Both the position numbers and the translations under genes were made by a program. Below, piece after piece: positions 8,294 through 26,833 of a DNA stretch of 31,427 nucleotides. The DNA is taken from the NCBI GenBank assembly GCA_016196885.1, contig JACPWU010000007.1:1-31427 (forward strand), written 5' to 3'. The notes under the pieces were generated by a model, which did not search any database, was not told where the DNA came from, and saw only the letters and a program-made list of their open reading frames with translations. Position 1 is the first letter of the stretch; the number at the start of each line of letters is the position of its first letter. Source of the stretch: Chlamydiota bacterium (lineage in GTDB: Bacteria > Auribacterota > JACPWU01).

Positions 8294-8299
8294 GCTATA

Positions 8300-10483: not shown

Positions 10484-10565
10484 GTGGGATGAAAAACTGG
10501 TTTTGATATTGAATAAAGTGTACCTTCATTTGGAAGAATTCTTCTAATCAAAAAATGGATCATAA

Positions 10566-11336: not shown

Positions 11337-11433
11337 GATAATGGCTATATACTAAGACGGGTCAGAAGATCAAATGAGTCAAGATTTAGCTATGCTTTGG
11401 CACATAAGTAATCCAAAAGGGTAGGGCTTCAAA

Positions 11434-11661
11434 ATGGAAAACGAGTTAGGGGTTCAGCCGCTTGATGTTGTGATGAGTCAGCTTGGGATTTCTAACAGTG
11501 ATTTAGTGCATGTATCAAAAGAGCAACTGACTTTCAAGATGGTTCGAAAGGGTCGCATGGGTCGCCGGATTACCCCCAATATTCAAAATAAGATTCAAAG
11601 GGCGTTACAAGCCGCGAGCCCCACGAACGCGTTTACGCTTAAGGATCTTTTTAATTATTGA
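11434..11661 (+). CDS. Hypothetical 75-aa protein
   Basis: Clean ORF. Its last ~95 nt are duplicated, with an in-frame stop, at 12949-13048. Confidence 0.5.
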   Translation: MENELGVQPLDVVMSQLGISNSDLVHVSKEQLTFKMVRKGRMGRRITPNIQNKIQRALQAASPTNAFTLKDLFNY

Positions 11662-11721
11662 GGGGGTGGAATAGATTTTCAGATAGGTGTGGTTTTTAAA
11701 ACAACGATTTCAATTTAGTTG

Positions 11722-11949
11722 TTATCTAACCCATGACTTGAAATGATCAGCAATCCATAATTTAATGAGAGATTGCCGTGTAACTCCCAGTTTTCTTGCT
11801 TCTTTGTCCAAAGAGCGAATGATCCAAGTAGGGAAATCGACATTGACTCGATGGTGTTCTTCTTCAGGTCTCCTGGCTTTAGTCAAATCTAGATATTGTG
11901 TAATATCTTCACCCTTGTCGAATTTTTTATCAAAATCTTTAGCTTTCAT
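11722..11949 (-). CDS. brnA: BrnA/CopG-like antitoxin (second copy)
   Basis: MKAKDFDKKFDKGEDITQYLDL..RVNVDFPTWIIRSLDKEARKLGVTRQSLIKLWI is a typical BrnA-family pattern. Confidence 0.8.
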   Translation of the reverse strand: MKAKDFDKKFDKGEDITQYLDLTKARRPEEEHHRVNVDFPTWIIRSLDKEARKLGVTRQSLIKLWIADHFKSWVR

Positions 11950-12055
11950 AGAGTTGTACCTCCTCTTTTCGGGCTCGCCTAACAGAAATGATGCGTACCT
12001 TTAGATCTCGATATGTGATGATAGCAGACCAGTGCTTCTCTTTAATTTTACCGAT
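11939..12055 (-). pseudogene. BrnT toxin remnant (C-terminal ~38 codons only)
   Basis: Reads IGKIKEKHWSAIITYRDLKVRIISVRRARKEEVQLYES-stop and overlaps the brnA start (ATGAAAGCTAA). It has the ..RIISARxAxxxExxxY signature. There is no N-terminal half; a stop codon and then the IR element lie upstream. Confidence 0.6.
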
Positions 12056-12094
12056 TTAGCTCATCTGATCAATGGTTTTGTTGTGTTAGATCGT

Positions 12095-12272
12095 GTATTA
12101 AAAGTGTGTCCTTTTAAAAGGAGGCGGGTCCTGTCCCTCCTCGCCCCCGCTGACGGCATCGGTCTCGGTTTGGTTCTTGAAGAGTCATTTTCAAGTCTCG
12201 ACCTGCTGGCGATCAGCGGGGGACCCCCAGTCGGGCCACCCGCATCAATAAAAGGACACACTTTTAAATACA
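12095..12272. mobile_element. Structured GC-rich inverted-repeat element (MITE-like), non-coding
   Basis: Terminal IRs TTAAAAGTGTGTCCTTTTA (12098-12116) / TAAAAGGACACACTTTTAA (12249-12267). Nested arms CCCCCGCTGA/TCAGCGGGGG and GCGGGT/ACCCGC. ORFs are open on both strands, a palindrome artefact. Confidence 0.6.
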
Positions 12273-12303
12273 GCATCTTGCATTACCCCTAAAAAATAAT
12301 CGA

Positions 12304-12339
12304 TTGACGAGGTAATTTAAAAAGGCTATACATAGTATA
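12304..12339 (+). promoter_or_regulatory. mazEF promoter with overlapping palindromic operator candidate
   Basis: TTGACG (12304-12309), 17-nt spacer, TATACA (12327-12332). The palindrome TATAC-ATA-GTATA spans 12327-12339. Confidence 0.55.
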
Positions 12340-12361
12340 TCCAATTAGGAGTGTGTGTTAT

Positions 12362-12610
12362 ATGGTTACCCGAGTTCAAAAATGGGGAAATAGCCAAGGT
12401 CTTCGTGTGAGCAAAGATGTGCTGGAAAAAGTGCATATCACTATTGGTGATATGGTTGATGTTCGGGTAGAGAAGGGCGGTATTTTTATTCAACCGGTTC
12501 GTCAGCTGCGTGGAAAATACAGTTTGCGAGAACTCGTGCGTCAAATGCCCAAAAATTATAAACCCAGTCTAGAGGTGTGGAGTGAACCGAGTGGGAAGGA
12601 AGTTTGGTGA
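12362..12610 (+). CDS. mazE: MazE/AbrB-type antitoxin
   Basis: MVTRVQKWGNSQGLRVSKDVLEKV.. is a SpoVT/AbrB swapped-hairpin motif. An AGGAG RBS is present, and the stop abuts the mazF ATG. Confidence 0.85.
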   Translation: MVTRVQKWGNSQGLRVSKDVLEKVHITIGDMVDVRVEKGGIFIQPVRQLRGKYSLRELVRQMPKNYKPSLEVWSEPSGKEVW

Positions 12611-12946
12611 ATGTTGAGATATGTACCCTGTAAAGGTGATTTGGTTATATTGACATTTGATCCGCAAGCGGGTCATGAACAAAAAGGACGAAGGCCTGCG
12701 CTGATTGTGAGTAATGACTTATTTAATCAGCGTACTGGTTTTGCCATCGCATGTCCCATTACAAACACAGATCGTAAAATCCCATTTCACGTAAAAATAC
12801 ATCCATCTTCCTCGCTCACGGGTTTCGTGATGGTAGACCAGGTTAAATCCATAGATTATCGAACCAGACAGGTCAAGTACGTTGAACAAGCCCCGATAGA
12901 ATTGTTAGAGGACGTATTAAGTATTTTGGATGCCTGCCTTTTCTAG
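12611..12946 (+). CDS. mazF: MazF/PemK-family endoribonuclease toxin
   Basis: YVPCKGDLVILTFDPQAGHEQKGRRPALIVSND..FAIACPITN..VMVDQVKSID. Classical PemK/MazF. Confidence 0.9.
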   Translation: MLRYVPCKGDLVILTFDPQAGHEQKGRRPALIVSNDLFNQRTGFAIACPITNTDRKIPFHVKIHPSSSLTGFVMVDQVKSIDYRTRQVKYVEQAPIELLEDVLSILDACLF

Positions 12947-12948
12947 CA

Positions 12949-13048
12949 GATTACTCTTACAATATTCAAAATAAGATTCAAAGGGCTCTCTAGGCCACGA
13001 GTCCCACGAACGCATTTATGCTTAAGGATCTTTTTAATTATTGAGGGG
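12949..13048 (+). repeat. Degenerate duplicate of the 3' end of ORF 11434-11661 (gene fragment)
   Basis: Aligns base-for-base with 11568-11665 with roughly a dozen mismatches. It would encode NIQNKIQRAL-stop-ATSPTNAFMLKDLFNY. Confidence 0.75.
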
Positions 13049-13126
13049 AGGGGATGCATCAAGGTTGAAATTTGTGATCTTGATGCAAATTTTATTGTTT
13101 TTGAAAAACATGTATTTTCTTCACAT

Positions 13127-13168
13127 CTGTATGTATATTTCATACAATTGTATGAAATATACATACAG
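13127..13168. repeat. Perfect 42-bp palindrome
   Basis: CTGTATGTATATTTCATACAA|TTGTATGAAATATACATACAG, 21+21 nt with no mismatch. It lies 8 nt upstream of ATG 13176. Confidence 0.95.
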
Positions 13169-13257
13169 TAAAAAGATGAAAAGTATCCTCACCAAAAATC
13201 AATTGCTGCTTCTAAGGATTTTTTACACAAATCCTCGGAAATCCTTTGTTCCTAGAG

Positions 13258-13599
13258 ATGAAGAGTATCGTTTCTAAGAGTGTGGGGATTGAGGCAAGCC
13301 TTACAGGTATTGTCCAAAAAATTAAGGGTTTGGTACTGGCTATTCTCTATGGTTCTTTTGCCAAGGGGACTGAACGTGCACATTCTGACGTTGATCTTCT
13401 GGTGGTTGGAAATTCCTTAGCAGAGGATCGTCTCTTAAGCCAGATTGCTGCTTTGGAGAAGAAGATTCAACGGGAAATCAATTATAAGTTATACAGTGAA
13501 AAAGAATTTAGTCGGCGAATGAGAGAAAAAGATCCCTTCCTTCAAGAACTTCTTTTAAGTAAGCATAGGGTTCTTAAGGGAGATCCCCATGCTTTTTGA
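13258..13599 (+). CDS. Nucleotidyltransferase-domain protein (MNT-like), probably a deletion derivative of a wHTH-NTase gene
   Basis: LAILYGSFAKGTERAHSDVDLLVVG is the NTase GS..D.D motif. A short ORF at 13176-13277 (MKSILTKNQLLLLRIFYTNPRKSF..) looks like the N-terminus of the same family in another frame, with the wHTH middle missing. Confidence 0.65.
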   Translation: MKSIVSKSVGIEASLTGIVQKIKGLVLAILYGSFAKGTERAHSDVDLLVVGNSLAEDRLLSQIAALEKKIQREINYKLYSEKEFSRRMREKDPFLQELLLSKHRVLKGDPHAF

Positions 13600-13890
13600 C
13601 GTATATTTGAAGCAAGGAAAACTCAAACATCAAACACCTCATTTTAAACAGATCGAGAAACAGATTCGTTGTGCGAGATGCGATTTGGCAACCGCTAAAC
13701 GTTTGATCAAGGAAGATTCAGATGGATTATGACAATCAATACCGTTCTCTCAAAGATATTTACCGCTTGGATTTTGTAGGTCCTTGAGGCTATCACAAAT
13801 TTTCACACAGATTTGAACAGATTTTTCGTGACAAAGGCTTATTTAGCTGATATCCTCAAAGATGTTTTGGTGGTGCATAGGGTTTTTGAC
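13589..13890 (+). pseudogene. HEPN-domain partner of the NTase, decayed by stops and frameshifts
   Basis: ATG 13589 overlaps the NTase stop. It reads ..IRCARCDLATAKRLIKEDSDGL-stop after 47 codons. HEPN-like continuations (WIMTINTVLSKIFTAWIL.., ..SHRFEQIFRDKGL..) occur in other frames. Confidence 0.5.
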
Positions 13891-13983
13891 TGAATATAAG
13901 GAAAAGGGAAAGAGGGTTTTTTGGGAACACAGAAGGAGGCAATATCGGCCTTTAAGTGAGTGGGGGGAGAAGGGATATGTTCC

Positions 13984-16900
13984 ATGAAGACATATCTTTC
14001 ACCCTGGTGGTTGGTTACTCTTTTCTTTTTCCTCGTTCCTCAGGTTTCGCCTTTAGCAAGTGATCTTAAAGTTCCTCTCCAAGTCGAGAATGATTTAAAT
14101 ATTGACCGCACCGATGAATATGTCACCTCAGGCGTTCCTGTTCCAAAGGACTCTCAGCTTTTTTCTACCCATTCCCTCAATATTTTAGATGAATCGGGAG
14201 GTGTGATTCCTTCTCAGGTGATTGTCACGGCCCGATGGGGCGGTGTGTCCACAGATACCAGTAAGCCGATCAAATGGATTTTGGCCACTTTTCCGGTTCA
14301 TGTTTCTCCCTTGAGCAAAGCGAATTATTTTCTTATTTCAGGATCTTCCAATCAAACTTCGAGCAATCTCAAGGTAGTTTCCGATACTGCCGATGCCATG
14401 GTGATAGATACTGGAAAGGCTGTGTTTTCCCTGAACAAGAAAAACTTTAATTTGTTGAGTTCTGTAACGGTGAGGGGTCAGCCAATTGCCACAGGAGGAG
14501 GGATCAGCCTTCTAGATGACCAAGGCGCTCTTTTTGATTCTTTGCAGGATGCTCCGAAAACTTTTTCAATTGAAGAGCAGGGTGCTTTAAGAATTGTGCT
14601 CAAGGTTGAAGGTTCTTTGAAATCAACGGGTGGGGCTTCTAAGACGGACTATCTTATTTATATTTATTTTTATTCCGATCAAAGTTATGCCCGTATGATT
14701 TATACGATTGGAAATCACAACAATGCTTTACAAAATAGCTGTTGTGGTTACGATGTTTTTAATTATTATGGGATTAACAGCATTACCTTCCGTGAGCTTT
14801 CCGTGAGTGAGGCTCTGGATCAGCCGAGTGGGTCGCTCTCTTATTTATTTCCGACAGGAAAGGGTGATCAATCAGGTGCTGTGAGCGGGCTCAATGTTTA
14901 TCAGGATTCATCAGGGACTTCTTATTGGAATCGGTACAATTCCACAGATAATCCTCGTCCCAACAGTGACGTCCAGTTTAAGGGATATGAGGTGAGGAAT
15001 GGTTCTACTCTCGTGGATTCAGGCAATCATTTTTCAGGATGGCTGGATCTTTCGGATTCCTCGAAGGGCGTTACCATGGGGATGATAGACTTTTGGCAAA
15101 ATTTTCCGAAAGGTTTAAGTGCCTCTCCAAGCGCTAGCATCAGGCTGAATCTTTTTCCTGTAGATTATGCGGGGCTTTATAACTTTAGGGTGGGAGAAGA
15201 GAAAACAACGGATCTCTTTTTTTATTTTCACAGTGGAGATGCGAATGCCGCGCATGTTTCTGACGTGGCTCAGGGCTTAGCGCATCCCATGATGGCTTTG
15301 GCTCCAGCCGATGTATACAGCTCATCAAAGGCAGTTCAAGAGTTTACGAGTCTTGCGGGAAGCTTGGAAGATCGGTATGGCCAATGGGCAAACGCAGATG
15401 ATCGGGTGAAGTTTGATTATTACAATGACCGAACCCTTCTTGCGGACCCCTTGTACAAAGGGATTGACAGCGATTATTATATTTTTTCAAGTCTTTGGTT
15501 GAGCACGTCTGATAAACCCAGCAGTGTGGATTATTTTGACTTTTATGGTTGGACTTGGTACGGCGATCAGCCTCTGGACTTTGAGTCTTATGGGGATGGC
15601 AAGGCAGGGCCCTTTGATGTGAAATACAATTTTGATTTCGGGGCCTGGATTCAATTTTTGAGAACGGGGGATTTCCGGTGGGAGGAAATGGCCAGTGCCT
15701 TTAGCAAACATTTGGAGCTTTTGATGCTGCATGATGTCGTGACCCTCACGGATGCTTATGGACCGACGGATGTGTCCAGGTGGCAAAACGCGGTTTTTGG
15801 GATGTCACAGCACAATGAAACGGGAAATTCTAATTCTGTGCGAAATGGGCTGGGACCCGTGATGGATACAGCGTTTGGGGCTCGCGGATCGCTGCTCCAT
15901 TATTATTTAACAGGGTATCCAGAGAGTCGAAGATTTTTGGAAAAAATAGGCGATTATGCCTATCACTTTTTCACGGATAATCCTGGGATATACGAAAACG
16001 TGCCTTATCTTGAGGACAGTGGGTCTGGAACGCGCACCTTTGCAAATTTTCTGACCATCATGGTAGAGGCCTTTAAATATTCTGGTGATTTAAAATATCA
16101 AAAACTTGCAAAACAAGTGATGGATCATTTTGCTCCGGAGAAACAGCCTTGGATCAATGGGCCTGTTGCAGGCAATGCTGGTTTCATGCAGCCCATGTTT
16201 TTCATGCAGTATGTGAATGCGATGGCCAGATACGCGCAGGTGGCGGACGAGTTTGGAATGAGTCAGGAAAGCAATCTCGCCAAGCAGCGGGTGGTTGCCT
16301 TTATGGATTGGTTTTTAAAATATGCTGTGATTAAACCTTATGAGTGGTACTCCACGTGGTACAAGTATTACTACAGTGGAAATAATCCTTTGACCCACGA
16401 TGATGGAACTCTCTACGACGACATGGTCAATAACTGGATGTTGGTCTTTGCAGATGCGTGTGCCTACGCCTATGCCTTTACCTTAAATCCCACTTACATC
16501 CATCAGGCGAAAGAATTTTTTAGAACAGGCGTTAACAATCCATTCTATCGGGGGAGTCCGCTGACTTATGCGACGGCGAAAGAAGCGGTGAATCATTTGG
16601 TGAATGGACATGTGTATCTTTATTATCAAAAATTTTACGACAATCTTCCACCCGACAGCGAACCGCCTGTCATTACAATCACGAACCCCGTCTCGAACGC
16701 GATGCTTTCAGGGGCCGTTGATTTGACTGTGAATGCGACAGACAACGTAGGCATTCAAAAGGTGTCTTATTTTTTGGAGGGTCAGGAATTGGCGAGTACT
16801 TGGCTGAGTCCTTTTAGCTATTCATGGAATACCGTTGGAACGCCTAACGGCAGTGATACGCTCCTGGCGAAGGCCTATGATTATGCCAACAATGAAACGG

Positions 16901-18858
16901 TGAGTGCACCCATTTCTCTTACGATTGCAAATATCATAGATATAGATGCTCCAAGCTGTACCATTTTAAGCCCTCAACAGAATGAATTCGTCAGGGGTGT
17001 TTTTTTGATTGAGGTACAGGCGCTCGACAATGTTGGGATACAAAAAGTAGAGTGCTATGTGGATGATAAATCAGTCGGGACCCTTACGAAAAGTCCGTAC
17101 TCTTTTAGCCTCGATTCTTCGCAATATACGGATGGGACTCACTTCATCCAAGCGAAGGCCACCGACACGAGCAACCTCGTTGGGCAGAGTCAAAAAATAG
17201 AGGTGATGATGGACCACACGAATCAGGCGCCGGTTGCCATTTTAACCTTCGATACCAGTCTCGTTTATCAAATCGAGCAAGCGGTTGCTTTTGATGGATC
17301 ACAATCAACGGACTCTGATGGGGATCCCCTGACTTATTCTTGGAGTTTTGGGGACAATGCGAGTGGCAATGGAGCCTCTACTTCTCATGCTTACCAGGTA
17401 GAGGGGAATTATGTTGTTGAATTGACCGTGTCAGATGGCAAGGTCCCATCAAAGACCCAAGCAAAGATTGCAATTTATCCTAAAGGTAAAATTTATACGA
17501 TCATTCTTCAACAGGGCCCGGATTATTCCGGAGCTCAAGATGCCTTGATCCGCGCCTCTTATGAAGGAAATTATGGAGGATCAACGCAGCTCCAAATCTA
17601 CAATGGCTACAATCCAGATTATAGGGCGTTGATGAAATTTGATTTGGGCAGTGTGACGCCTCCTCAAAATGCTATTTTTGTTTCTTCACAACTGATGCTT
17701 TTCTGCACTTCAACGGATTCCGTGAAAAATAATATTTACAGGCTGACAAAATCCTGGAAAGAGGGGACAGGAACTTACGGAAATACATTCAATGGAGCAA
17801 CCTGGAATACATTCGATGGGGTTTCGCCATGGACCCTGCCTGGGGCAGATCTAGATTTAACGACGGATTTTGGGGAAGGGCCGAATGGTTTGGTTTCTTC
17901 AGTGACTCCTGTGAAAGGGTCTGTGACTTTTGATGTTTCATCCCTTGTCTCGAAAGGGTTGACGGGTGAACTCGAGAACGATGGGTGGGTTGTTTTAATG
18001 CCGGACGACATTTATTATTCTCAAACGGCTTATGTTTCTAAAGAGGGGAGCGATGTTTCCGAGCGACCTAAACTGGTGATGAATTATTTAATTCCTTCTG
18101 CGGCGCCCGTTGATGATATACCTCCTCAATGCGAACTGATCAGTCCTACGGATGGCGCGATGGTTTCAGGAAAAATAGATATTGCTGTGAATGCGACAGA
18201 CAATGTGGCTATTCAAAAAGTGACTTATGTTTTAAACGATCAGGAAATAGGGACACAGACCGCCACTCCTTATTCACTGACTTTTGACACGGCTCAAGTG
18301 CCGGATGGCAGTTATATTCTTATCGCAAAGGCGTATGACACGGCTGGAAATCAGACTCCCAGCAGTCCGGTGACGTTTTTTATTTATCAGGGCAAGAATC
18401 TTGTTTTAAATCCACAGGCGGATGAAAATCTGCAATACTGGAAATTAACTTCAGGGGCAAAAGCCTCTGTTGTTACTTTTGAAAACGATAAAGTTTTTGC
18501 AACAACGGCAGGTTCTCTCTATCAAGATATCGTTTTGAAAAATATTCCCAATATTAATTCTGGAAGGCTTCAAATCACGCTCAGTTCAGATATGAAGGCT
18601 CAAAAGGATAACCAAGATCAGGGAAATCCCTACCTCTACGGTTATTTGGTTGGAACGCTTGATAATTTCGGCAAGATCACAACCTATATGCAAACTCCAT
18701 CTGTAAGGACAACGGCATGGCAAGTGAAACAAGTAACTTACACCCTCCCTGCCTATACAAATAAAATGAGAATTTATTTGAAAAGAAGTTCAAAAAATAA
18801 ATCAAAAACCACAAATCCGACGGCCTATTTTGACACGGTGAGTGTGAAAATAGGTTAG
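13984..18858 (+). CDS. Giant secreted multidomain protein 1. Modules: YetA/PcRGLX-like (PL26-like) N-terminal region, 2 Ig-like, PKD, DNRLRE/CBM96-like, Ig-like, C-terminal jelly-roll
   Basis: GGAGAAGGG RBS with ATG 13984, then signal MKTYLSPWWLVTLFFFLVPQVSPLA. Ig-like modules carry the NATDNVGIQKV motif three times. PKD: FDGSQSTDSDGDPLTYSWSFGD..GNYVVELTVSD. DNRLRE-like: ..YRALMKFDL....YRLTKSWKEG. The N-terminal family call is from recall only. Confidence 0.9.
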   Translation: MKTYLSPWWLVTLFFFLVPQVSPLASDLKVPLQVENDLNIDRTDEYVTSGVPVPKDSQLFSTHSLNILDESGGVIPSQVIVTARWGGVSTDTSKPIKWILATFPVHVSPLSKANYFLISGSSNQTSSNLKVVSDTADAMVIDTGKAVFSLNKKNFNLLSSVTVRGQPIATGGGISLLDDQGALFDSLQDAPKTFSIEEQGALRIVLKVEGSLKSTGGASKTDYLIYIYFYSDQSYARMIYTIGNHNNALQNSCCGYDVFNYYGINSITFRELSVSEALDQPSGSLSYLFPTGKGDQSGAVSGLNVYQDSSGTSYWNRYNSTDNPRPNSDVQFKGYEVRNGSTLVDSGNHFSGWLDLSDSSKGVTMGMIDFWQNFPKGLSASPSASIRLNLFPVDYAGLYNFRVGEEKTTDLFFYFHSGDANAAHVSDVAQGLAHPMMALAPADVYSSSKAVQEFTSLAGSLEDRYGQWANADDRVKFDYYNDRTLLADPLYKGIDSDYYIFSSLWLSTSDKPSSVDYFDFYGWTWYGDQPLDFESYGDGKAGPFDVKYNFDFGAWIQFLRTGDFRWEEMASAFSKHLELLMLHDVVTLTDAYGPTDVSRWQNAVFGMSQHNETGNSNSVRNGLGPVMDTAFGARGSLLHYYLTGYPESRRFLEKIGDYAYHFFTDNPGIYENVPYLEDSGSGTRTFANFLTIMVEAFKYSGDLKYQKLAKQVMDHFAPEKQPWINGPVAGNAGFMQPMFFMQYVNAMARYAQVADEFGMSQESNLAKQRVVAFMDWFLKYAVIKPYEWYSTWYKYYYSGNNPLTHDDGTLYDDMVNNWMLVFADACAYAYAFTLNPTYIHQAKEFFRTGVNNPFYRGSPLTYATAKEAVNHLVNGHVYLYYQKFYDNLPPDSEPPVITITNPVSNAMLSGAVDLTVNATDNVGIQKVSYFLEGQELASTWLSPFSYSWNTVGTPNGSDTLLAKAYDYANNETVSAPISLTIANIIDIDAPSCTILSPQQNEFVRGVFLIEVQALDNVGIQKVECYVDDKSVGTLTKSPYSFSLDSSQYTDGTHFIQAKATDTSNLVGQSQKIEVMMDHTNQAPVAILTFDTSLVYQIEQAVAFDGSQSTDSDGDPLTYSWSFGDNASGNGASTSHAYQVEGNYVVELTVSDGKVPSKTQAKIAIYPKGKIYTIILQQGPDYSGAQDALIRASYEGNYGGSTQLQIYNGYNPDYRALMKFDLGSVTPPQNAIFVSSQLMLFCTSTDSVKNNIYRLTKSWKEGTGTYGNTFNGATWNTFDGVSPWTLPGADLDLTTDFGEGPNGLVSSVTPVKGSVTFDVSSLVSKGLTGELENDGWVVLMPDDIYYSQTAYVSKEGSDVSERPKLVMNYLIPSAAPVDDIPPQCELISPTDGAMVSGKIDIAVNATDNVAIQKVTYVLNDQEIGTQTATPYSLTFDTAQVPDGSYILIAKAYDTAGNQTPSSPVTFFIYQGKNLVLNPQADENLQYWKLTSGAKASVVTFENDKVFATTAGSLYQDIVLKNIPNINSGRLQITLSSDMKAQKDNQDQGNPYLYGYLVGTLDNFGKITTYMQTPSVRTTAWQVKQVTYTLPAYTNKMRIYLKRSSKNKSKTTNPTAYFDTVSVKIG

Positions 18859-18933
18859 TTCTTTAAACCCCTGTCCGTCATCTATGAACATTCATGCCGA
18901 CTGAGGTCGGCACAAAGGGGGATGAAAATCACC

Positions 18934-19011
18934 CTTGTAGTCGCCCCATTTATGGGGCGGTCTATGACATTGGGGCATTGGGCATTGCCCGATAAATCGG
19001 GCGACTACAAG
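18934..19011. repeat. Palindromic repeat-family copy (three-hairpin MITE/REP-like)
   Basis: CTTGTAGTCGCCC...GGGCGACTACAAG outer arms enclose GCCCCATTTATGGGGC and GCCCGATAAATCGGGC hairpins. It is preceded by the separate hairpin TGCCGAC-TGAG-GTCGGCA (18895-18912). Confidence 0.75.
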
Positions 19012-19200
19012 CCATCATGAGTCATTGTATAAGAAAGAGTAGAGACTATTTTCAGATGAAGGTTCAAAATTCTAAGTTGGCAGAAGAGGGGAAAGAAGTT
19101 TATTTTTATAACATATTGCAGATAAGCAAGTTCCGAATTTAAAAAATGATGAATTCTGTTCTTGGGTAGGGATAGGGGAATATTTTTTTAAAAATTTTTG

Positions 19201-19230
19201 TTGACAACTTCTCAACGTTCCTGGTATTAC
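19201..19230 (+). promoter_or_regulatory. Sigma70-type promoter, copy B (TTGACA-17 nt-GTATTA)
   Basis: TTGACA at 19201-19206 and GTATTA at 19224-19229, preceded by an A/T-rich tract. It aligns without gaps to 8266-8293. Confidence 0.6.
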
Positions 19231-19235
19231 TATTT

Positions 19236-19828
19236 CCGGTTTAAGATTTATCCACAACGAAGCTCTTTACCCTTATGATGAGCAGTGCCGGGACGAGGGA
19301 AAGACGGGGGGGAGCTTCTTCATTGAGGGCCAACCTGCTTTCTCAAGGCGGCGTTTCTTTTCATCAAGGGACTTCTCTGCCCAAAAATAGCCTTTCATTT
19401 CTGAGATTCTTGCCGCCATTTCTCATCGCGAGTTTAAAGTGTCTAAAGTTCTTCACGAAACTTTCTTTTTGTCTACATTCAATCAACCAGCCGGGAATAA
19501 AAGGGGGTCAAGGGAAAGAGGAGAGTTAAAACAACGATAACCTCTGAAAAACCCTTATTTCTGGAGACCTCTCAAAAAGGTCCCAGAGGGAAGCGCGCCT
19601 GCAAGCGAAGGAGGAGGCGTACGTTTGTAGGGTACGCCGCACGACTGAGCGAAGCAGGAAGCGTTGTCAGATGGGCCTTTTTCAGAGGTCTCAACAACGA
19701 TAACTTTTTTATTTATGTAGGGGCACATACCATGATGGACACGCGCGAAGAGAAATGTTTTGTGTTCCCGCAGTTCAGGAGTTTTCCTGGATAAACCGTC
19801 TTATATTGCACAAGAAAGGATTAAATTT
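19236..19828 (+). promoter_or_regulatory. Long untranslated leader B upstream of giant gene 2 (module 1 about 19236-19460, 16-nt motif 19490-19505, inserted IR element 19542-19692)
   Basis: Homologous to leader A module 1. The motif-plus-purine tract aligns with 24806-24860. Confidence 0.55.
19530..19704. mobile_element. MITE-like inverted-repeat element flanked by a perfect 12-nt direct repeat
   Basis: AACAACGATAAC occurs at 19530-19541 and 19693-19704. Arms GAGACCTCTCAAAAAGGTCCCA (about 19563-19584) and TGGGCCTTTTTCAGAGGTCTC (about 19672-19692). Inner hairpin GGCGTAC..GTACGCC. The paralogous leader at 24846-24870 lacks it. Confidence 0.65.
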
Positions 19829-22800
19829 ATGTTAAGGAAAATGTTGGGAATGTTTTTAGATAGAAGGGTTAGCAGTTCTTTTTTGGCTTTAGGGATTTTG
19901 CTGGTTAGCACTTGCAGAATTTGGGGTTGGTCTACGGAGGAAGTGGGTGCTTCTAAGAGCTTTTCTGACATGGGCCAAAGATGGCTCGTCTTAGATGGCT
20001 CGGGCAATCCTCACATTGCCTATGGAGGTGATTCTTTGTATCACGCCTATTATGATGGGACTTCTTGGCATACAGAGACTGTTGATACTTCAACTGGGGT
20101 AGGTTCTTTTACCTCTATTGGTATCAATTCAAGTGGATATATGTGTATCAGTTATTATGATGAGACAAATGCTGATCTCAAATACGCGACGAACGTGAGC
20201 GGCTCTTGGGTGAAAACGACAGTGGATTCTACAGGGTCCGTGGGTCAGTACACCTCCCTTGCTTTGGATTCAAATGGGAAGGCGCATATCAGTTATTATG
20301 ATAATACAAATGGCGATCTCAAATACGCGACGAATGCCAGTGGCTCTTGGGTGAAAACAACGGTGGATTCTTCAGGATCTGTGGGTGGATACACCTCTCT
20401 TGCGTTGAATTCAAGTGGTAAGGCGCATATTAGCTATTATGATAATACAAATGGCGATCTCAAGTACGCGACGAATGCCAGTGGTTCTTGGGTGACAACG
20501 ACAGTGGATTCTTCAGGGTCTGTGGGTTGGTACACCTCTCTTGCTTTGGATTCAAATGGGAAGGCTCATATCAGTTATTATGATGCTTCATACGGTTATC
20601 TCAAATACGCGACGAATGAAAGTGGATCTTGGGCAACATACACAGTGGATAGAGAGAACAATGTGGGGAAATATACCTCGATTGCTCTGGATTCAAGTGG
20701 GAAGATCTATATCAGTTATTATGATGATACAAACGATGATTTGATGTACGTGACGGGTGACACCACGGGTAACAATGCGTCTTGGAATATTACCTCTTAT
20801 TCAAGTTCAGCAAATATCGGTTTGTATACCTCGATTGCCGTAGATTCGAGCGGCCGTGCCCATGTCAGTCATTATGATAGCAGCAATAAAGCGATCGAAT
20901 ATACGCTCATCAGTACCGAGGGACAATCACCAGCGACAACGACGGTAGATGTTTCGGAAGACAATGGTTTGTACACCTCACTTGTCCTGGATTCAAATGG
21001 TAAGGCGCATATCAGCTATTATGATAATGCAAATGCTGATCTCAAATACACGACGAATGCCAGCGGCTCTTGGGTGACAACGACGGTGGATTCTTCAGGG
21101 TCTGTGGGCTCGAACACCTCCCTCGCCTTGGATTCAAATGGGAAGGTGCATATCAGCTATTATGATATCACAAATGGCGATCTCAAATATGCGACGAATG
21201 CCAGCGGCTCTTGGGTGAAAACGACCGTGGATTCTACAATAACTGTGGGTTGGCACACCTCCCTTGCCTTGGATTCAAATGGGAAGGTGCATATCAGTTA
21301 TTATGATATCACAAATGGCGATCTCAAATATGCGACGAATGCCAGCGGCTCTTGGGTGAAAACAGTGGTGGATTCTTCAGGATATGTCGGTGGATACACC
21401 TCCCTTGCCCTGGATTCAAATGGGAAGGTGCATATCAGTTATTATGATTGGACCAATAGTGATCTCAAATACGCAACGAATGCGAGTGGCTCTTGGGTGA
21501 AAACGACGGTGGATTCTTCAGGATATGGGGGTTACTACACCTCCCTTGCCCTGGATTCGAGTGGTAAAGTTCATATCAGCCATGCCGATCCCGTAAATGA
21601 TGATCTCAAATATGCGACGAATGCCAGTGGTTCTTGGGTGACAGAGACGGTGGATTCTACAGGATATGTGGGTCAATACACCTCCCTTGCCTTGGATTCA
21701 AATGGGAAGGTGCATGTCAGTTATTATGATAATACAAATGGCGATCTCAAATACGCGACGAATGCAAGCGGCTCCTGGGTGGCAGAAGCTCTGGATTCTT
21801 CTGGATCTGTGGGTTCATACACCTCTCTTGCCTTAGATTCAAATGACAAGGTTCATGTCAGTTATTATGATGATACAAATAGTGCTCTCAAATACATCAC
21901 CAATGCAGACTCTCCTATCGCAGGGGGTGATAGCTATGCTTTGGATGAAGCAGCTTCGCTAGCGGGGTCAAGTGTTTTGGCCAATGACAGTGATCCTCAG
22001 GGGAGTTCTTTGACTGCAAGTTTGGTCAGGGGTCCTGCCTATGCGAGTTCATTTGGCCTGAATAGTGATGGGACTTTTTCTTATACCCATGATGGCTCTG
22101 AAACCACAAGTGACAGTTTTACTTATCAGGCCAGTGATGGGTCTCACAGTTCTTCAGAGACGACGGTGACCCTCACTGTCAATCCCGTCAATGATGCCCC
22201 TCTCAATTCTCTTCCAAGCGCTCAAGGTATTGATGAAGATACTTCATTAACATTTTCGAGTGCCAATGGCAATCTCATCAGCCTCTCGGATGCGGATGCA
22301 GGTTCAAGCGCTGTTCAGGTGAGTCTTTCCACCAGTAACGGGGCGCTTACGCTGGGAAGTAGTTTCGGCTTGACGTTTAGCACAGGAGACGGGACAGAAG
22401 ATATTTCCATGACCTTTACGGGAACGATGACAAATATCAATGCGGCCCTGAATGGCATGGTGTTTTCACCCACTGCCAATAGCAATGGTTCTGTTTCCCT
22501 TTCCATGACCACAAACGATCAGGGGAACACGGGTTCAGGAGGGGCCCTGTCGGATGCGGACAGTCTCACGATCACCGTTAATTCTATCAATGATGTCCCT
22601 CAGATAGAGGAGGGTCAGTCGTTTAGTGTAGATGAAACGGCCTCGGACGGGACCGTGGTGGGAACTGTTATCGCAAATGATGCCGATGGAGATGCGATTG
22701 CCTTTAGCATTGTGGGAGGCAATACCGATGGCACATTTAGCATAGATTCTTCAGGGGTGATTCGAGTTGCGGATTCCGACAGTCTAGAAGGGTCTTACAC

Positions 22801-24706
22801 TCTCTCGATTACGGCGACGGATGGAACGCTCACCTCTTTAGAAACGGAGGTTGGGATTGCTGTGTCGCCCGACACCGATGACGATGGGATTCTGGATATC
22901 GATGAAGTGTCTTTGGGAACGGATCCTTTGAATCCCGATACCGATGGCGATGGTTTCACGGATGGTGAAGAATTGGAGGCGGGAACGGATCCTTTAGATG
23001 CGACCAGTCTTCCAGCCATCATCACGATTACGGCAGACAATCAATATAAGCTTTACGTGAATGGGGTGGAAGTGGGGAGCGGGAGTGATTGGGCGAGCCC
23101 CGATAGTTACCTTGTCCATTTGTCAGATGATGGGACGGGCGAGGTTAGCATTGAGGCGACGGACGTGGGTGGGATTGCGAGTATTGCCTGCCAGATTCAA
23201 TATGGGGATGAAATTCAAGTTTCAGATTTCACCTGGCAAGTTTCTACTTCTCTCCCATCGGCCTGGCCCTCTCCTACAAATACCTCTAGCATGCCGGGTG
23301 CCACAGAGCATTACGCGATGGGGGAAGGTCCTTGGGGAAGCACGGTTTCGAGTGCCTTTGAAGACAAGGTAAAATGGATTTGGTCCAGTGATCCTAACAA
23401 TCACGATCAGGTCTATCTTTGGACGAAATTCAACCCCCATCAGAACGGCATTTTTAGGGGCAGCGTGGATAACGTCGGAACCATTTTTAAAAATGGTGAA
23501 ACGATTGCCACGGGCTCTGATTGGTCGCAAGGTGTTTTTGCGGCAGCCGAGGTTCGCGCAGGCGATATTTTTGCCATCGAAGCCCGTGATGAAGGTGGCA
23601 TTGGAGCGGCTCTGGGTGAAATCACCTGGCGTGATGAGAATGGCATCACCCACACTTGGGCCTCGAACAGCAACTGGAAAATGGTCACCAGCATGTCCGA
23701 AGGCTGGGAGACAACTCTGGATGACACGCTTTCAGACTCCACTGAAATAGGAGCGCTCGGGGTGTCACCTTGGGGCAAGGACGGGAATCTTTCCGGAATC
23801 TCCCCTAAGGCGCAGTGGATTGGACCTGTGGATCCCTATGGGACCGATGAATTTGGGGTTATCACTCAGATTCCGGAAATCCTGCTCGAGATCACGGCGG
23901 ACAATGCGGCCACGGTGCGTGTGAATGGGACAGAGATTGGAAGCCTGTCAGACTGGACGCAGGGTGCCACGTTGGGTCTTTCAAATTTATCCGATGGGGA
24001 CACAATCGTTATCGAGGCCGAGAATTTCGGTGGCCCGGCAGGTGTCCTTGCTGTGTTGTACACACCCGACGAGACCCTTGTCACCAACTCCACTTGGAAA
24101 GCCTCTCGGGATGGCTCAACTTGGGTGCAGGCAAGCGCGTATGGAGCCAATGGTGTCTCGCCTTGGGGAAGCTTTCCTAATATTCCCGATGACGCCCAAT
24201 GGATTTGGACCTATTCAACAGACCACAGCCCTGTCTTCTTGAGCTTCACCCTGGGTGAGAGTAATACAGAGGAAGATTTGACCACTGTTCAAATCGCAGC
24301 CGACAACGCCTTCGAGCTTTATTGGAATGGCACACTCGTTGCTTCCGGAGATGATTGGAGCACTCTTCAGCGCGTGCCCATTTCCGGCACAGGTGTCTTG
24401 GCTGTGAAGGCGATAGATCTGGGTTACAAGGCAGGACTCATTCTCAGTGCGACAGGTTCCCATGAATTTGTTTCAGACGCTTCTTGGAAAGTTTCTACTG
24501 TGGAGGAAACGGGCTGGACAGACGTAGGTTTTGATGATTCTCATTGGAGCCCCGCGACAAGTTGGGGACCTTACGGGACAGAACCTTGGAACAGCAATGT
24601 CTCTGGTTTTTCAGACACGTCAGCAGAATGGATATGGACGGACAAGAATCAAACGGGATCAAGCGACATTGATTCCACCGTTTACTTTAGGAAAGTGATC
24701 GAATAA
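19829..24706 (+). CDS. Giant secreted multidomain protein 2. Modules: 14 x 47-aa propeller-type repeats, cadherin/VCBS-like modules, TSP3-type Ca-binding repeats, 4 C-terminal jelly-roll modules
   Basis: Start chosen at ATG 19829 (MLRKMLGMF..SSFLALGILLVSTC signal/anchor). The repeat unit is YTSLALDSNGKAHISYYDNTNGDLKYATNASGSWVKTTVDSSGSVG. Also VNPVNDAP and IANDADGD (cadherin-like), DTDDDG..DTDGDGFTDGEE (TSP3-like), and ITADN..LYVNG..GSDW four times. Confidence 0.9.
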   Translation: MLRKMLGMFLDRRVSSSFLALGILLVSTCRIWGWSTEEVGASKSFSDMGQRWLVLDGSGNPHIAYGGDSLYHAYYDGTSWHTETVDTSTGVGSFTSIGINSSGYMCISYYDETNADLKYATNVSGSWVKTTVDSTGSVGQYTSLALDSNGKAHISYYDNTNGDLKYATNASGSWVKTTVDSSGSVGGYTSLALNSSGKAHISYYDNTNGDLKYATNASGSWVTTTVDSSGSVGWYTSLALDSNGKAHISYYDASYGYLKYATNESGSWATYTVDRENNVGKYTSIALDSSGKIYISYYDDTNDDLMYVTGDTTGNNASWNITSYSSSANIGLYTSIAVDSSGRAHVSHYDSSNKAIEYTLISTEGQSPATTTVDVSEDNGLYTSLVLDSNGKAHISYYDNANADLKYTTNASGSWVTTTVDSSGSVGSNTSLALDSNGKVHISYYDITNGDLKYATNASGSWVKTTVDSTITVGWHTSLALDSNGKVHISYYDITNGDLKYATNASGSWVKTVVDSSGYVGGYTSLALDSNGKVHISYYDWTNSDLKYATNASGSWVKTTVDSSGYGGYYTSLALDSSGKVHISHADPVNDDLKYATNASGSWVTETVDSTGYVGQYTSLALDSNGKVHVSYYDNTNGDLKYATNASGSWVAEALDSSGSVGSYTSLALDSNDKVHVSYYDDTNSALKYITNADSPIAGGDSYALDEAASLAGSSVLANDSDPQGSSLTASLVRGPAYASSFGLNSDGTFSYTHDGSETTSDSFTYQASDGSHSSSETTVTLTVNPVNDAPLNSLPSAQGIDEDTSLTFSSANGNLISLSDADAGSSAVQVSLSTSNGALTLGSSFGLTFSTGDGTEDISMTFTGTMTNINAALNGMVFSPTANSNGSVSLSMTTNDQGNTGSGGALSDADSLTITVNSINDVPQIEEGQSFSVDETASDGTVVGTVIANDADGDAIAFSIVGGNTDGTFSIDSSGVIRVADSDSLEGSYTLSITATDGTLTSLETEVGIAVSPDTDDDGILDIDEVSLGTDPLNPDTDGDGFTDGEELEAGTDPLDATSLPAIITITADNQYKLYVNGVEVGSGSDWASPDSYLVHLSDDGTGEVSIEATDVGGIASIACQIQYGDEIQVSDFTWQVSTSLPSAWPSPTNTSSMPGATEHYAMGEGPWGSTVSSAFEDKVKWIWSSDPNNHDQVYLWTKFNPHQNGIFRGSVDNVGTIFKNGETIATGSDWSQGVFAAAEVRAGDIFAIEARDEGGIGAALGEITWRDENGITHTWASNSNWKMVTSMSEGWETTLDDTLSDSTEIGALGVSPWGKDGNLSGISPKAQWIGPVDPYGTDEFGVITQIPEILLEITADNAATVRVNGTEIGSLSDWTQGATLGLSNLSDGDTIVIEAENFGGPAGVLAVLYTPDETLVTNSTWKASRDGSTWVQASAYGANGVSPWGSFPNIPDDAQWIWTYSTDHSPVFLSFTLGESNTEEDLTTVQIAADNAFELYWNGTLVASGDDWSTLQRVPISGTGVLAVKAIDLGYKAGLILSATGSHEFVSDASWKVSTVEETGWTDVGFDDSHWSPATSWGPYGTEPWNSNVSGFSDTSAEWIWTDKNQTGSSDIDSTVYFRKVIE

Positions 24707-24724
24707 ACCAGTCCATCACTTGTT

Positions 24725-24782
24725 CGGGCATCCTCCTCGCCTCCTATTGGGAGGGGGGTTGCCCGGGCACGGACCTGTTTTT
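24725..24782 (+). terminator. Hairpin plus T-run after giant gene 2 (possible terminator or attenuator)
   Basis: CGGGCA..CCTCC-TATT-GGGAGG..TGCCCG at 24725-24765, then CTGTTTTT. Confidence 0.45.
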
Positions 24783-24889
24783 GGAAGAGTCACTTTATTC
24801 AACTGGCCGGGAATGAAAGGGGACAAAGGGAAAGAGGAAGAATTACAACAACAGTTTTGTAAAAAACAAATAGAAAAGGAAAGATTCAA

Positions 24890-25552
24890 ATGAAAAAGTT
24901 AGTGATCGTAGGGTTGATGATGGTGTTATCAGGTGGTTTTGCAATGGCCGAGATGGATGAGGTCAAGAAAGGGTTTTACATTGAAGGTCAGGTTTCAGCC
25001 ATGATTCCTACAGAGGATGGCTTGCAGACGGGGGTCTATTCCAATGGCAGATTGGGATACCGCTTCAATGATTATATGGGTCTTGAGGTGGAGTCCGGCT
25101 ATGCAAATATCAGCGAGGATCCGGACGTGGTGGATTATGATCTCATCCCCTTGCTTCTCAATGCACGTCTTCACCCGATCAAGGGAGAGAAATTTGATCC
25201 TTATCTTGTGGGAGGTTTGGGCGTTCTCTTCGTAGATGTGAATGTGGATGAAGAGGGCGTGGTAGATGAGGCATCGGCCTTGCTAGGTGTGGACTTGAGT
25301 GCTTTTAACACAAGTGTTTCTGTGGATGCGGATGCTGATGAGGCCTTTGCGGGGCAAATCGGGATCGGGGCCCTCTATCATTTCAATGACAACATTGCAG
25401 CGTTTTTGGAGGTTCGAGGCTTTTTCGCCCAGACAGATGTACATGTGAAAGAAATCGTCACTTCAGATGTTGGGAGTGCCAAGACAGAAATAGATGATGA
25501 AATGAAGTTTCATTCCGTGGTGGTGGGCGGCGGTTTGAGGATTAAGTTCTAG
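24890..25552 (+). CDS. Small outer-membrane beta-barrel protein, paralog 2
   Basis: Signal MKKLVIVGLMMVLSGGFAMAE and C-terminal GGGLRIKF. About four-fifths identical by eye to OMP1. Confidence 0.85.
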   Translation: MKKLVIVGLMMVLSGGFAMAEMDEVKKGFYIEGQVSAMIPTEDGLQTGVYSNGRLGYRFNDYMGLEVESGYANISEDPDVVDYDLIPLLLNARLHPIKGEKFDPYLVGGLGVLFVDVNVDEEGVVDEASALLGVDLSAFNTSVSVDADADEAFAGQIGIGALYHFNDNIAAFLEVRGFFAQTDVHVKEIVTSDVGSAKTEIDDEMKFHSVVVGGGLRIKF

Positions 25553-25577
25553 CCTGCGGGGTAGAGATTTTTAGCAA

Positions 25578-25638
25578 AAGCCCCGCCTCACTTTAAAATC
25601 GTCAATACCCCCCTGACGCTGGGGCGGGGCTTTGTTTT
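25578..25638 (+). terminator. Rho-independent terminator, paralog of 9673-9732
   Basis: AAGCCCCGCC (25578-25587) pairs with GGCGGGGCTT (25623-25632), followed by TTTGTTTT. Confidence 0.7.
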
Positions 25639-25664
25639 GCAATGATAATATAAGGAAGATAAAA

Positions 25665-26285
25665 ATGAATACAAAACTGTTAAAACTTTATTTTTTGTGT
25701 TTTTTTACTGGGGCATCCATTATTTTTTTGTCGGGTTGTGCGTCTTATAAGACAAAGATGTTAAATGTGATGCCCGTAGAGAATTATGCAACAAAAACGG
25801 AGGTTAAGGGTCTGAAAATAGCTGCGGATTCCTATGATACAGCCGAAAAGGCAAAGTCAGGATTTGATGTTGATGTCACGAAAGGTGGATATGTTCCCAT
25901 TAATTTGATTTTTGAAAACGAAACAAACAGTCGGTTTTTAGTGTTTAAAAATCAGATTACATTGTTGGGTGTAAATGGAACGGTTTTTTATCCGGTTTCT
26001 TCTCAGGTAGTGGCAGATGATATGGAAAATAATGCGATCGCTTATGGATTTTTGGGTGGTATACTTTCTTACATGTCGGCCGCGGATGCAAATAAGAAAA
26101 TGCAAAGCGATTGGCACGAAAAAGAACTGCCGGAGAATAAAATGATTCTTAAGGGAACAATGGCGTCTGGGGTTGTATTTTTTAAACTTCCCAAAGGAAC
26201 CAATGTACTCAACGGGTCATCCTTATCAATTCAAATAGAAGATATGGACACACAGGAGAAAACAGAAGTAAAAATTAACTTATAA
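25665..26285 (+). CDS. Lipoprotein, family not recognised (not alignable to lipoprotein 9802-10419)
   Basis: AAGGAAG RBS with ATG 25665, lipobox FLSGC. The track start at 25632 lies inside the terminator and was rejected. Confidence 0.8.
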   Translation: MNTKLLKLYFLCFFTGASIIFLSGCASYKTKMLNVMPVENYATKTEVKGLKIAADSYDTAEKAKSGFDVDVTKGGYVPINLIFENETNSRFLVFKNQITLLGVNGTVFYPVSSQVVADDMENNAIAYGFLGGILSYMSAADANKKMQSDWHEKELPENKMILKGTMASGVVFFKLPKGTNVLNGSSLSIQIEDMDTQEKTEVKINL

Positions 26286-26389
26286 AGTAAGAAAAACAAG
26301 TGGCTGGGTCTAGGGCAATAAGGGGGGAACGGGGGTTGCTTCCTTCAATCAATACCCCCTCTTAGATAAGAGGGGTCTGGGGAGTTAGT

Positions 26390-26770
26390 TCCTTAAAGGT
26401 TTCTTCTCCTTCTTTAGCAATGAGGTCTGATCATGCAGAATAGAATTTTGGGAAAACTCCATCAACCCAAGGACAGAGATAGGAAATGAGAACTCAAGAG
26501 CAACAGCTTGAGCCAGACAGGCCTTTGCAGTCCCTGTGGGATTGACCTGAAGAAAACGTAGGCATACACTGACAGGTGTCTGTCGCTTCCTAAGGAAAAG
26601 AAACATCTACTAGCGCAGTTAGCCCTTTGTCTGCCATTAAGGCAGCGGGCCTTCTTTGCTGGCATTTCTGAAGGTCAAGATGGCCAAGATGTCATGTTTT
26701 TATAGTCCCCAGGGGATGCGTCGAATTCCATTTTCCTATCCCTGTTCTTGGGTCAACATTCCTCTGGCAA
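26390..26770 (+). other. Non-coding copy of leader module 2 (homolog of 8655-8870) with copy-specific insertions
   Basis: Shared blocks, collinear and in the same orientation as leader A: CAAGAGC..CTTGAGCCAGA, CCTGAAGAAAACG-AGGCATAC, TTTCTGAAGGTCAAGATGG-CAAGAT, GCGTCGAATTCC, TGGGT-AACATTC. Confidence 0.55.
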
Positions 26771-26833
26771 CCTCTCTTCAAAAATATTAAAATAATCTCT
26801 AGCGTCTCATGCATTCATTCTCACGAAGCGTGT

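Follow-up and report, generated by a model that had tools for sequence, protein, structure and literature searches.

A diverged second copy of an outer membrane protein gene leader upstream of a giant surface protein gene in an uncultured Chlamydiota bacterium

Results

Organization of the region upstream of giant gene 2

The DNA analysed here (the window) comprises the 31,427 nucleotides (nt) of contig JACPWU010000007.1 from the assembly GCA_016196885.1 of a Chlamydiota bacterium. Positions 19185–19828 of the window form a non-coding region in front of a gene for a giant surface protein, giant gene 2. A sequence-only reading of this DNA had described 19201–19828 as a second copy (copy B) of a promoter and leader that also precedes a gene for an outer membrane protein (OMP), OMP1, at copy A. 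When the sequence was read directly, all the features listed for this interval were present where they had been placed. The upstream regions A and B are true paralogs, and they share two blocks. The promoter-proximal block of copy B (19185–19281, plus strand; paralog of 8250–8345) holds an A/T-rich upstream tract, the hexamer TTGACA (19201–19206), a non-canonical −10 region and, downstream of the latter, the 15-mer TTTAAGATTTATCCA, which is identical in copies A and B. The second block, module 1 (19284–19455, plus strand), is a conserved non-coding segment paralogous to 8438–8608, with a 26-nt identical core, TTCTCTGCCCAAAAATAGCCTTTCAT.

Two potential RNA structures lie in this part of the plus strand. 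A putative 5' stem-loop, P1, spans 19259–19319, where GAAGCUCUUUACCC pairs with GGGGGGGAGCUUCU, and a small 7-bp hairpin with a T-run inside module 1 (19335–19361) is a weak terminator or attenuator candidate. Further downstream, the interval 19483–19535 (plus strand) carries a 16-nt motif, GCCGGGAATAAAAGGG at 19490–19505, followed by a purine tract to about 19527 that includes the 11-mer AAGGGAAAGAG (19510–19520). A palindromic insertion resembling a miniature inverted-repeat transposable element (MITE) occupies 19530–19704 (strand not assigned), with a hairpin at 19564–19693 and a flanking 12-nt direct repeat. The remaining 124 nt (19705–19828, plus strand) are a unique, gene-proximal segment that holds the ribosome-binding site AAGGA (19816–19820), 8 nt ahead of the ATG of giant gene 2 at 19829. 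This segment could be aligned neither to copy A nor to the region upstream of a second OMP gene, OMP2, and a consensus scan found no promoter-like site of at least 9/12 in it.

Copy A extends over 8250–8998 on the plus strand. It consists of the promoter block (8250–8345), an insert (8346–8437), module 1 (8438–8608), a palindromic repeat (8689–8859) and the 16-nt motif (8870–8885), with OMP1 (8999–9658) as the gene downstream. Copy B was confirmed to lack both the insert and the segment 8689–8859, which the sequence-only reading had called module 2; the length of 87 nt it had given for the insert was too short, the actual length being about 91 nt.

The duplicated OMP cassette and giant gene 2

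The duplication reaches beyond the leader. The interval 24861–25638 (plus strand) contains the proximal 5' region, the gene OMP2 (24890–25552) and a conserved terminator; it is paralogous to 8969–9730, which holds the same three parts around OMP1, with 80% identity over 780 nt. The proteins share 80% of their amino acids (aa) at a dN/dS of 0.14. OMP1 is a 219-aa beta-barrel of the Pfam family PF13505, to which OMP2 also belongs, and a search among 5.8 billion proteins found no orthologs, so that the family consists of OMP1 and OMP2 only. OMP2 starts 184 nt past the stop codon of giant gene 2. This paralog, together with a copy of the motif at 24799–24852, lies immediately 3' of giant gene 2 and had been missed by the sequence-only reading, according to which one regulatory cassette had come to precede two very different genes. 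That view has to be revised: the OMP gene and its terminator were duplicated along with the leader, and both cassettes are OMP cassettes, the second of which contains giant gene 2. The genes that follow the OMP genes (9802–10419 and 25665–26285) both encode lipoproteins of about 205 aa, with the lipoboxes LAGC and LSGC, which show no homology to one another (BLASTP E = 0.1); the OMP terminator therefore marks the end of the duplication.

Giant gene 2 (19829–24706, plus strand) encodes 1625 aa, and the NCBI gene call gives the same length. The protein has a signal peptide, 13 copies of a 47-aa propeller-type repeat (141 nt each at the DNA level) and cadherin-like, Big_9 and TSP3 domains (Pfam). 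Full-length relatives were not found; a search for giant-protein paralogs with similar leaders gave relatives for the N-terminal repeat region alone, in unrelated phyla. Between 22000 and 24700, the 3' half of the gene has a G+C content of 50–53%, compared with 42–46% in the rest of the window, which is compatible with a foreign origin or with an effect of amino-acid composition.

The stop codon of giant gene 2 is immediately followed by a terminator-like, GC-rich hairpin and then by CUGUUUUUGG (24711–24784, plus strand). The hairpin folds with −39 kcal/mol (z = −2.6), and a UUUUU run follows its paired part (24711–24774); the pattern scan did not pick it, as it has an internal loop. An operon of giant gene 2 and OMP2 read from leader B should have no terminator between its genes, which is where this hairpin stands. 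It is thus not obvious that giant gene 2 and OMP2 share a transcript. A perfect sigma-54 consensus, TGGCACACTCGTTGCT, was noticed inside the 3' end of giant gene 2 (24328–24343, plus strand), 562 nt upstream of OMP2 and separated from it by the terminator-like hairpin; about 0.03 perfect matches are expected per window, as estimated from the information content of the pattern.

Conservation of the shared blocks

The promoter blocks (8250–8345 and 19185–19281) are identical at 76 of 95 aligned bases (80%), and the two copies of module 1 (8438–8608 and 19284–19455) at 138 of 170 (81%), including the 26-nt run; blastn, with E-values of 3e-13 and 1e-37, places the similarity far beyond chance. The neutral yardstick was provided by silent sites of OMP1 and OMP2, which were duplicated together with the leader. 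Their four-fold degenerate sites are only about 53–54% identical (proportion of synonymous differences pS 0.47, synonymous distance dS 0.75), so the duplication must be old. Measured against the neutral mismatch rate of 0.473, both the 19 mismatches among 95 bases of the promoter block (binomial P = 3e-8) and the 32 among 170 of module 1 (P = 9e-15) are far too few. The similarity between A and B starts abruptly about 16 nt upstream of the −35 hexamer, and the leader segments between the conserved blocks could not be aligned between the copies. The blocks are conserved, or homogenised, as non-coding sequence; their identity above the neutral level argues for constraint, as had been proposed when selection on the regulatory element itself was suggested.

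Promoter block and module 1 are lineage-private, with only two copies in everything searched. A 22-nt leader core was absent from 185,579 reference genomes, and the additional 14 kb of the same genome gave noise-level matches only. A 20-nt leader core matched ten metagenome contigs, all of one unrelated family. These contigs, from JGI/ENA, share the exact 21-mer CTGCCCAAAAATAGCCTTTCA with module 1 and nothing else of the leader; they are homologous to each other downstream of the match, whereas upstream of it they fall into three different contexts, a pattern like that at the terminus of a mobile element. They were rejected as leader homologs, a shared stretch of 21 nt being at chance level.

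Palindromic insertions in the leaders

The differences between the copies are discrete insertions. The segment 8689–8859 of copy A forms a near-perfect 170-nt hairpin (−86.7 kcal/mol, z = −11.2) and has a degenerate, interrupted relative at about 26480–26740 (z = −3.1), upstream of a histidine-kinase gene. The supposed module 2 is thus a dispersed palindromic repeat. In copy B, the inverted arms 19559–19583 and 19673–19697 are 25 nt long and 84% complementary, the 130-nt hairpin folds with −69 kcal/mol (z = −5.0), and a perfect direct repeat of 12 nt, AACAACGATAAC, stands on either side of the element (at 19530 and 19693) and resembles a target-site duplication. The B element accordingly has the terminal inverted repeats and the target-site duplication of a MITE. 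The multiple dispersed copies expected of such elements were not seen, as no second copy was found in the 45 kb examined (window plus the additional 14 kb), and neither a transposase partner nor a wider family was identified for the palindromic elements. An integron attC-like or hammerhead-like identity of the palindromes was dropped upon inspection by eye because the core motifs are missing. By their sequence features, both palindromes behave like MITE-type insertions, that is, like passengers and not like a conserved regulatory part. The leaders are modular, as had been suggested, because mobile hairpins landed in them.

Coding potential and structure of the leader RNA

The shared leader blocks are non-coding. 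No open reading frame (ORF) of the leader keeps its frame across the insertions and deletions that separate A from B. In the ungapped 132 nt of module 1, the sole open plus-strand frame has 3 codon changes that are synonymous and 17 that are not; by codon position the differences number 10, 10 and 6, with the fewest at third positions. Small leader ORFs had no Pfam matches. On these grounds (broken frames, 3 versus 17 changes, no Pfam match), module 1 was rejected as a protein-coding segment on either strand. Neither did a known RNA family emerge: the leader had no match in Rfam 15 at gathering scores and only noise at E-values up to 10, the best being 0.6.

In the RNAalifold consensus of A and B, P1 is a 13-bp helix of GAAGCUCUUYACCC with GGGGRGGAGCUUYU, and each of its three substitutions is G.U-compatible on the plus strand only. 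The small hairpin in module 1 was called terminator-like by the scan in both copies, and its two A-to-G changes retain pairing only as plus-strand G.U; at about −10 kcal/mol it is not significant (z = −0.7 and −1.7), and no convincing alternative pairing was found. The whole consensus fold of these two sequences retains all of its 47 pairs, 11 changes being one-sided and 1 double. The insert of about 91 nt in copy A sits in the loop of P1, which closes around it in the minimum free energy fold of copy A (z = −4.2). On the plus strand the insert folds into two hairpins (−38.2 kcal/mol, z = −3.4); the values for the minus strand are −19.6 kcal/mol and z = −0.6. The asymmetry of these computed folds favours a leader RNA read from the plus strand.

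A specific pairing of the 5' block or module 1 with the purine motifs was also considered. It was rejected, as dinucleotide-shuffled motifs pair equally well (z = +1.3, −1.1, −2.6 and +1.0) and the effect is compositional.

The putative promoter

The −35 hexamer of a sigma-70/sigma-66-type promoter, TTGACA, is perfect and identical in both copies (19201–19206 in B, 8266–8271 in A). In copy A it is followed, after 16 nt, by GATATT, which scored 10/12 in the consensus scan. The sequence-only reading had proposed TTGACA-17-GTATTA for copy B. Both hexamers exist, the second at 19224–19229, but the 17-nt register is one base off the GGTATT that is homologous to the −10 hexamer of copy A. A second register, TTGACA-15-TGn-TATTRC with a C at −7, is common to A and B; in B it reads TGgTATTAC (19222–19230), with TATTAC at a spacing of 18 nt, preceded by the TG, and no T at −7. 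The abrupt onset of similarity upstream of TTGACA looks like a promoter boundary. Sites of the sigma-54 or sigma-28 type were found neither in the leaders nor at the motifs.

The 16-nt motif and its purine tract

The 16-nt motif GCCGGGMATRAAAGGG occurs four times in the window against 0.08 expected, each time on the plus strand, between genes and upstream of an envelope gene. Motif A (8870–8885) lies 129 nt upstream of the OMP1 start codon, motif B (19490–19505) 339 nt upstream of giant gene 2, and motif C, GCCGGGAATGAAAGGG with its purine tract (24799–24852, 16-mer at 24806–24821), 84 nt upstream of OMP2. The fourth exact copy (9779–9794) follows the OMP1 terminator by about 44 nt; its start is 23 nt upstream of a gene for a DUF4410 lipoprotein and 8 nt separate it from the ATG, so that it supplies the Shine-Dalgarno sequence of this gene. 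Two of the four copies stand 22–44 nt after terminator-like hairpins. Motif B reads ATA at the position where the other three read ATG. The regions around motifs B (19483–19535) and C (24799–24852) are 83% identical, and in a three-way alignment 53 of 69 aligned bases are shared by B and C, against 36 by A and B and 39 by A and C. The purine 11-mer AAGGGAAAGAG has 6 matches in the window against 1.17 expected, one of them 80 nt upstream of giant gene 1, the gene adjacent to leader B on its upstream side.

The motif is private to this lineage. Reference genomes gave scattered single matches across phyla and none in Chlamydiae, as opposed to what a widespread signal would give. Two upstream ORFs of 26 codons (8877–8957 and 24813–24893) begin at the ATG within the motif with MKG, and the stop codon of the latter overlaps the OMP2 start codon (ATGA). 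Their peptides are not conserved and they have no Shine-Dalgarno sequence; copy B has ATA in place of the ATG.

Gene order at the junction upstream of leader B

Another NCBI metagenome-assembled genome (MAG) of the same organism, GCA_016178005.1, is 99.95–99.99% identical to the window but carries it on two contigs. Contig 4 covers 3984–19060 of the window and continues with an Asp/Asn-tRNA synthetase gene. Contig 74 has a divergent lpxK and a 1.2-kb intergenic region before it continues with 18887–31306 of the window. The two share a hairpin repeat at the junction that resembles repetitive extragenic palindromic (REP) sequences (18887–19032, strand not assigned; fold z = −4.8), located at 14904–15049 of the contig 4 piece and 3998–4143 of the contig 74 piece. 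The window has the allele of contig 4 at 18921 and that of contig 74 at 19013, with a crossover within 91 identical nt, and a Logan contig breaks off within the repeat. That giant gene 1 borders leader B in the window is therefore due either to a chimeric assembly or to a strain rearrangement. In the arrangement of the other MAG, where the neighbour of leader B is a divergent lpxK, giant gene 2 must have its own promoter in this intergenic region.

The REP-like hairpin family (TTGTAGTCGCCCCATTTATGGGGC and variants) is represented in the window by intergenic inverted pairs at 3420–3479, 18934–19011 and 30548–30638.

Further repeats of the window

A 96-nt direct repeat (11577–11672 and 12960–13055; 88–90% identical), which ends in GATCTTTTTAATTATTGAGGGG, lies in a stretch rich in toxin-antitoxin genes (BrnT/CopG, MazE/PemK, NTase) and may be a duplicated regulatory or 3' region. 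A perfect 42-nt palindrome with an operator-like appearance (13127–13168; CTGTATGTATATTTCATACAA / TTGTATGAAATATACATACAG) was found just upstream of a gene pair of the nucleotidyltransferase type. Where one gene ends (3') and the following one begins, a cluster of direct repeats of the AAATCCGAAATTC type at 29614–29754 forms a 45-nt inverted pair, 76% complementary. Finally, positions 480–611 of the lpxK-side contig piece and 12118–12244 of the window have in common, on opposite strands, a further dispersed repeat, about 130 nt long and 83% identical.

Discussion

The paralogy of both the leader blocks and the OMP units suggests that 19185–19535 is the diverged duplicate of a promoter and leader whose original target was the OMP gene, and that it may act in cis on giant gene 2. 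We hold this interpretation tentatively, with slightly less than even confidence. The ancestral cassette would have comprised the promoter, P1, module 1, the 16-nt motif with its purine tract, the OMP gene and the terminator in this order, and would have been duplicated within the genome. In the second copy, a 5.3-kb segment consisting of the palindromic insertion, giant gene 2 and the terminator-like hairpin would have come to lie between two copies of the motif. That giant gene 2 is inside the cassette is supported by motifs B and C, which flank it and are closer to each other than to motif A. The reverse history, in which the giant gene was lost from copy A by recombination between motif copies, is equally compatible with the arrangement.

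According to this interpretation, a sigma-66/70-type promoter with a perfect TTGACA and a weak −10 region would start transcription near 19236. The plus-strand leader RNA would carry a 5'-proximal stem-loop, a pyrimidine-rich conserved module and the purine-rich motif, and may act in cis on the stability, elongation or translation of the transcript of the downstream envelope gene, in the manner of the ompA 5' untranslated region (UTR). Giant gene 2 would thereby share the control of OMP1.

Several observations weigh against a functional leader B. The hexamer GGTATT (19223–19228, 16-nt spacing) that is homologous to the −10 of copy A lacks the near-invariant A at −11, the promoter of copy B failed the consensus scan, and neither of its registers offers the expected −10 (TATAAT or TANNNT, spaced 16–18 nt from the −35, with an A at −11 and a T at −7). 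A very stable 130-nt hairpin, followed 12 nt later by a T-run, stands between the promoter and the ATG at 19829 and could impede transcription. At the RNA level, module 1 folds no better than shuffled sequences on either strand (z from +0.06 to +2.9) and is therefore not aptamer-like, and P1 alone in copy B does not exceed shuffles either (z = −0.13). The consensus fold was matched by 266 of 500 shuffles; with two sequences such controls are powerless. The conservation of the blocks could reflect strong past constraint combined with a fairly recent loss of function in B, or gene conversion. As to the neighbouring genes, the terminator-like hairpin between giant gene 2 and OMP2 makes co-regulation of OMP2 by leader B doubtful. 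The alternative of read-through from giant gene 1, named in the sequence-only reading, rests on a junction that disagrees between the two assemblies.

Part of this evidence would be accommodated if copy B were a relic. Giant gene 2 may have arrived later with a proximal promoter and a terminator of its own, which would have cut the leader off from OMP2 and left 19185–19535 idle and decaying. The loss of the −11 A from a hexamer homologous to GATATT of copy A, the change from ATG to ATA in motif B only and the palindromic element inserted into B agree with such a decay, and the divergence of 17–23% between motifs B and C permits, by a rough estimate, an insertion recent enough for an identity of about 80% to persist. 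We consider this explanation unlikely. TTGACA, the 15-mer after the −10 and the 26-nt core are still perfectly identical, the segment 19705–19828 offers no promoter-like site of at least 9/12, and the arrangement in the other NCBI MAG demands some promoter in this intergenic region. Copy A, moreover, also gained insertions (the 91-nt insert and the 170-nt palindrome) and is not considered dead on that account. It is very improbable that the similarity is a neutral by-product of recent duplication or gene conversion, devoid of regulatory function. Only two copies exist, both in one genome, and they show no excess of secondary structure, as this explanation would have it; but the OMP silent sites, about 53% identical, speak for an old duplication, the patchy conservation with a sharp promoter boundary and unalignable spacers is unlike a recent copy, and one would have to assume ad hoc that conversion tracts were confined to just these blocks.

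Two further explanations shift the function to another part of the region. The conserved promoter, P1 and the small hairpin with its T-run could form an independent gene for a trans-acting small RNA of about 125 nt in copy B (ending at 19361) and about 215 nt in copy A (ending at about 8514), which perhaps acts on the purine motifs via CUCUUUACCCUU. Both copies have kept the hairpin and T-run, which the scan called terminator-like; the 5' segment CTCTTTACCCTT comes close to being the reverse complement of AAGGGAAAGAG, an 11-mer that stands upstream of giant genes 1 and 2 and of OMP2; and the evidence for plus-strand structure applies equally to a small RNA. Such a gene is nonetheless quite unlikely, as the strongest conservation, including the 26-nt core, falls downstream of the small hairpin, the hairpin itself is weak (about −10 kcal/mol, z = −0.7 and −1.7), the complementarity to the motifs is no better than that to dinucleotide-shuffled motifs and no Rfam family was matched. 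Alternatively, the 16-nt motif might be the true control element, serving as an operator or as a promoter read by an alternative sigma factor, with the upstream leader being secondary. Its four plus-strand copies against 0.08 expected, all intergenic and before envelope genes, would suit this role; two of them stand 22–44 nt after terminator-like hairpins and near the next start codon, and the genes for the DUF4410 lipoprotein and OMP2 have no other recognisable promoter. Against it, scans and inspection by eye revealed no sigma-70-, sigma-54- or sigma-28-like hexamers at the motifs, these lie anywhere between 23 and 339 nt ahead of the start codon, the copy at 9779 overlaps a ribosome-binding site and leaves no room for a promoter and a 5' UTR, and the motif is purine- and G-rich, unlike a melting region. 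We judge a primary role of the motif distinctly improbable.

A wider role may be imagined for the leader and the motif together. The leader and GCCGGGAATRAAAGGG with its purine tract could form a lineage-private, post-transcriptional regulon signal for at least five envelope or surface genes, which might be recognised by the pyrimidine-rich leader RNA or by an RNA-binding protein; this is a speculative proposal to which we give little credence. With the same small credence, the genes of this regulon would be the two OMPs, the DUF4410 lipoprotein and the two giant adhesin-like proteins. If true, it would constitute an RNA-based envelope control circuit in an uncultured chlamydia-like bacterium, belonging to a phylum that is not known to have Hfq or CsrA.

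The preferred interpretation, a cis-acting OMP leader, has a model in the 5' UTR of Escherichia coli ompA, which is 133 nt long and a target of MicA/Hfq. In both cases a long non-coding leader with a stem-loop near the presumed 5' end and a purine-rich, ribosome-binding-like element precedes a gene for a beta-barrel OMP. The leader described here differs in being about four times longer (predicted length about 590–700 nt) and in carrying palindromic insertions, and there is no relationship in sequence or in Rfam. The ompA 5' UTR is a known mRNA stabilizer, and a strong Shine-Dalgarno sequence protects the transcript even when it is not translated (PMC7509114).

Closer in classification are the long leaders of chlamydiae. 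In Chlamydia pneumoniae, leaders of more than 100 nt are frequent, six being longer than 400 nt, and transcription of ompA starts at −266, −254 and −165 (PMC3333780). A long OMP leader thus has a precedent in the phylum that NCBI assigns to the MAG. The sigma-66 promoters of C. pneumoniae have TTGA at −35 and TANNNT at −10 (PMC3333780). The long leaders and tandem sigma-66 promoters of ompA in C. pneumoniae and C. trachomatis resemble the present case in the NCBI-assigned phylum, the sigma-70-like promoter and the TTGA of the −35, whereas the −10 found here misfits TANNNT at normal spacing. The OMP is not a major outer membrane protein of the chlamydial type but a PF13505 barrel with no homologs outside this genome. 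We know of no description, in Chlamydia, of a paralogous leader common to two loci. The insertions within the leaders resemble palindromic repeats of the MITE and REP types: the B element and the former module 2 of copy A are long, near-perfect hairpins, the one with a 12-bp duplication and the other with a relative elsewhere. As a difference from these, no transposase partner or wider family was identified for them, and the B element is a single copy in the 45 kb examined.

The duplication also holds two warnings. A leader module can be a mere mobile palindromic repeat, and conclusions on gene order hinge here on a repeat junction that is not reproduced in the other assembly of the same organism. 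What was found is a modest, lineage-private regulatory duplication, an instance of an element of a known kind. A functional leader would mean that a newly placed giant surface protein has come under existing OMP control by being nested in a duplicated regulatory cassette. To our knowledge, almost nothing is known of regulation in environmental Chlamydiae, and the conserved leader together with the recurrent 16-nt motif provides a handle on the regulation of their envelope genes.

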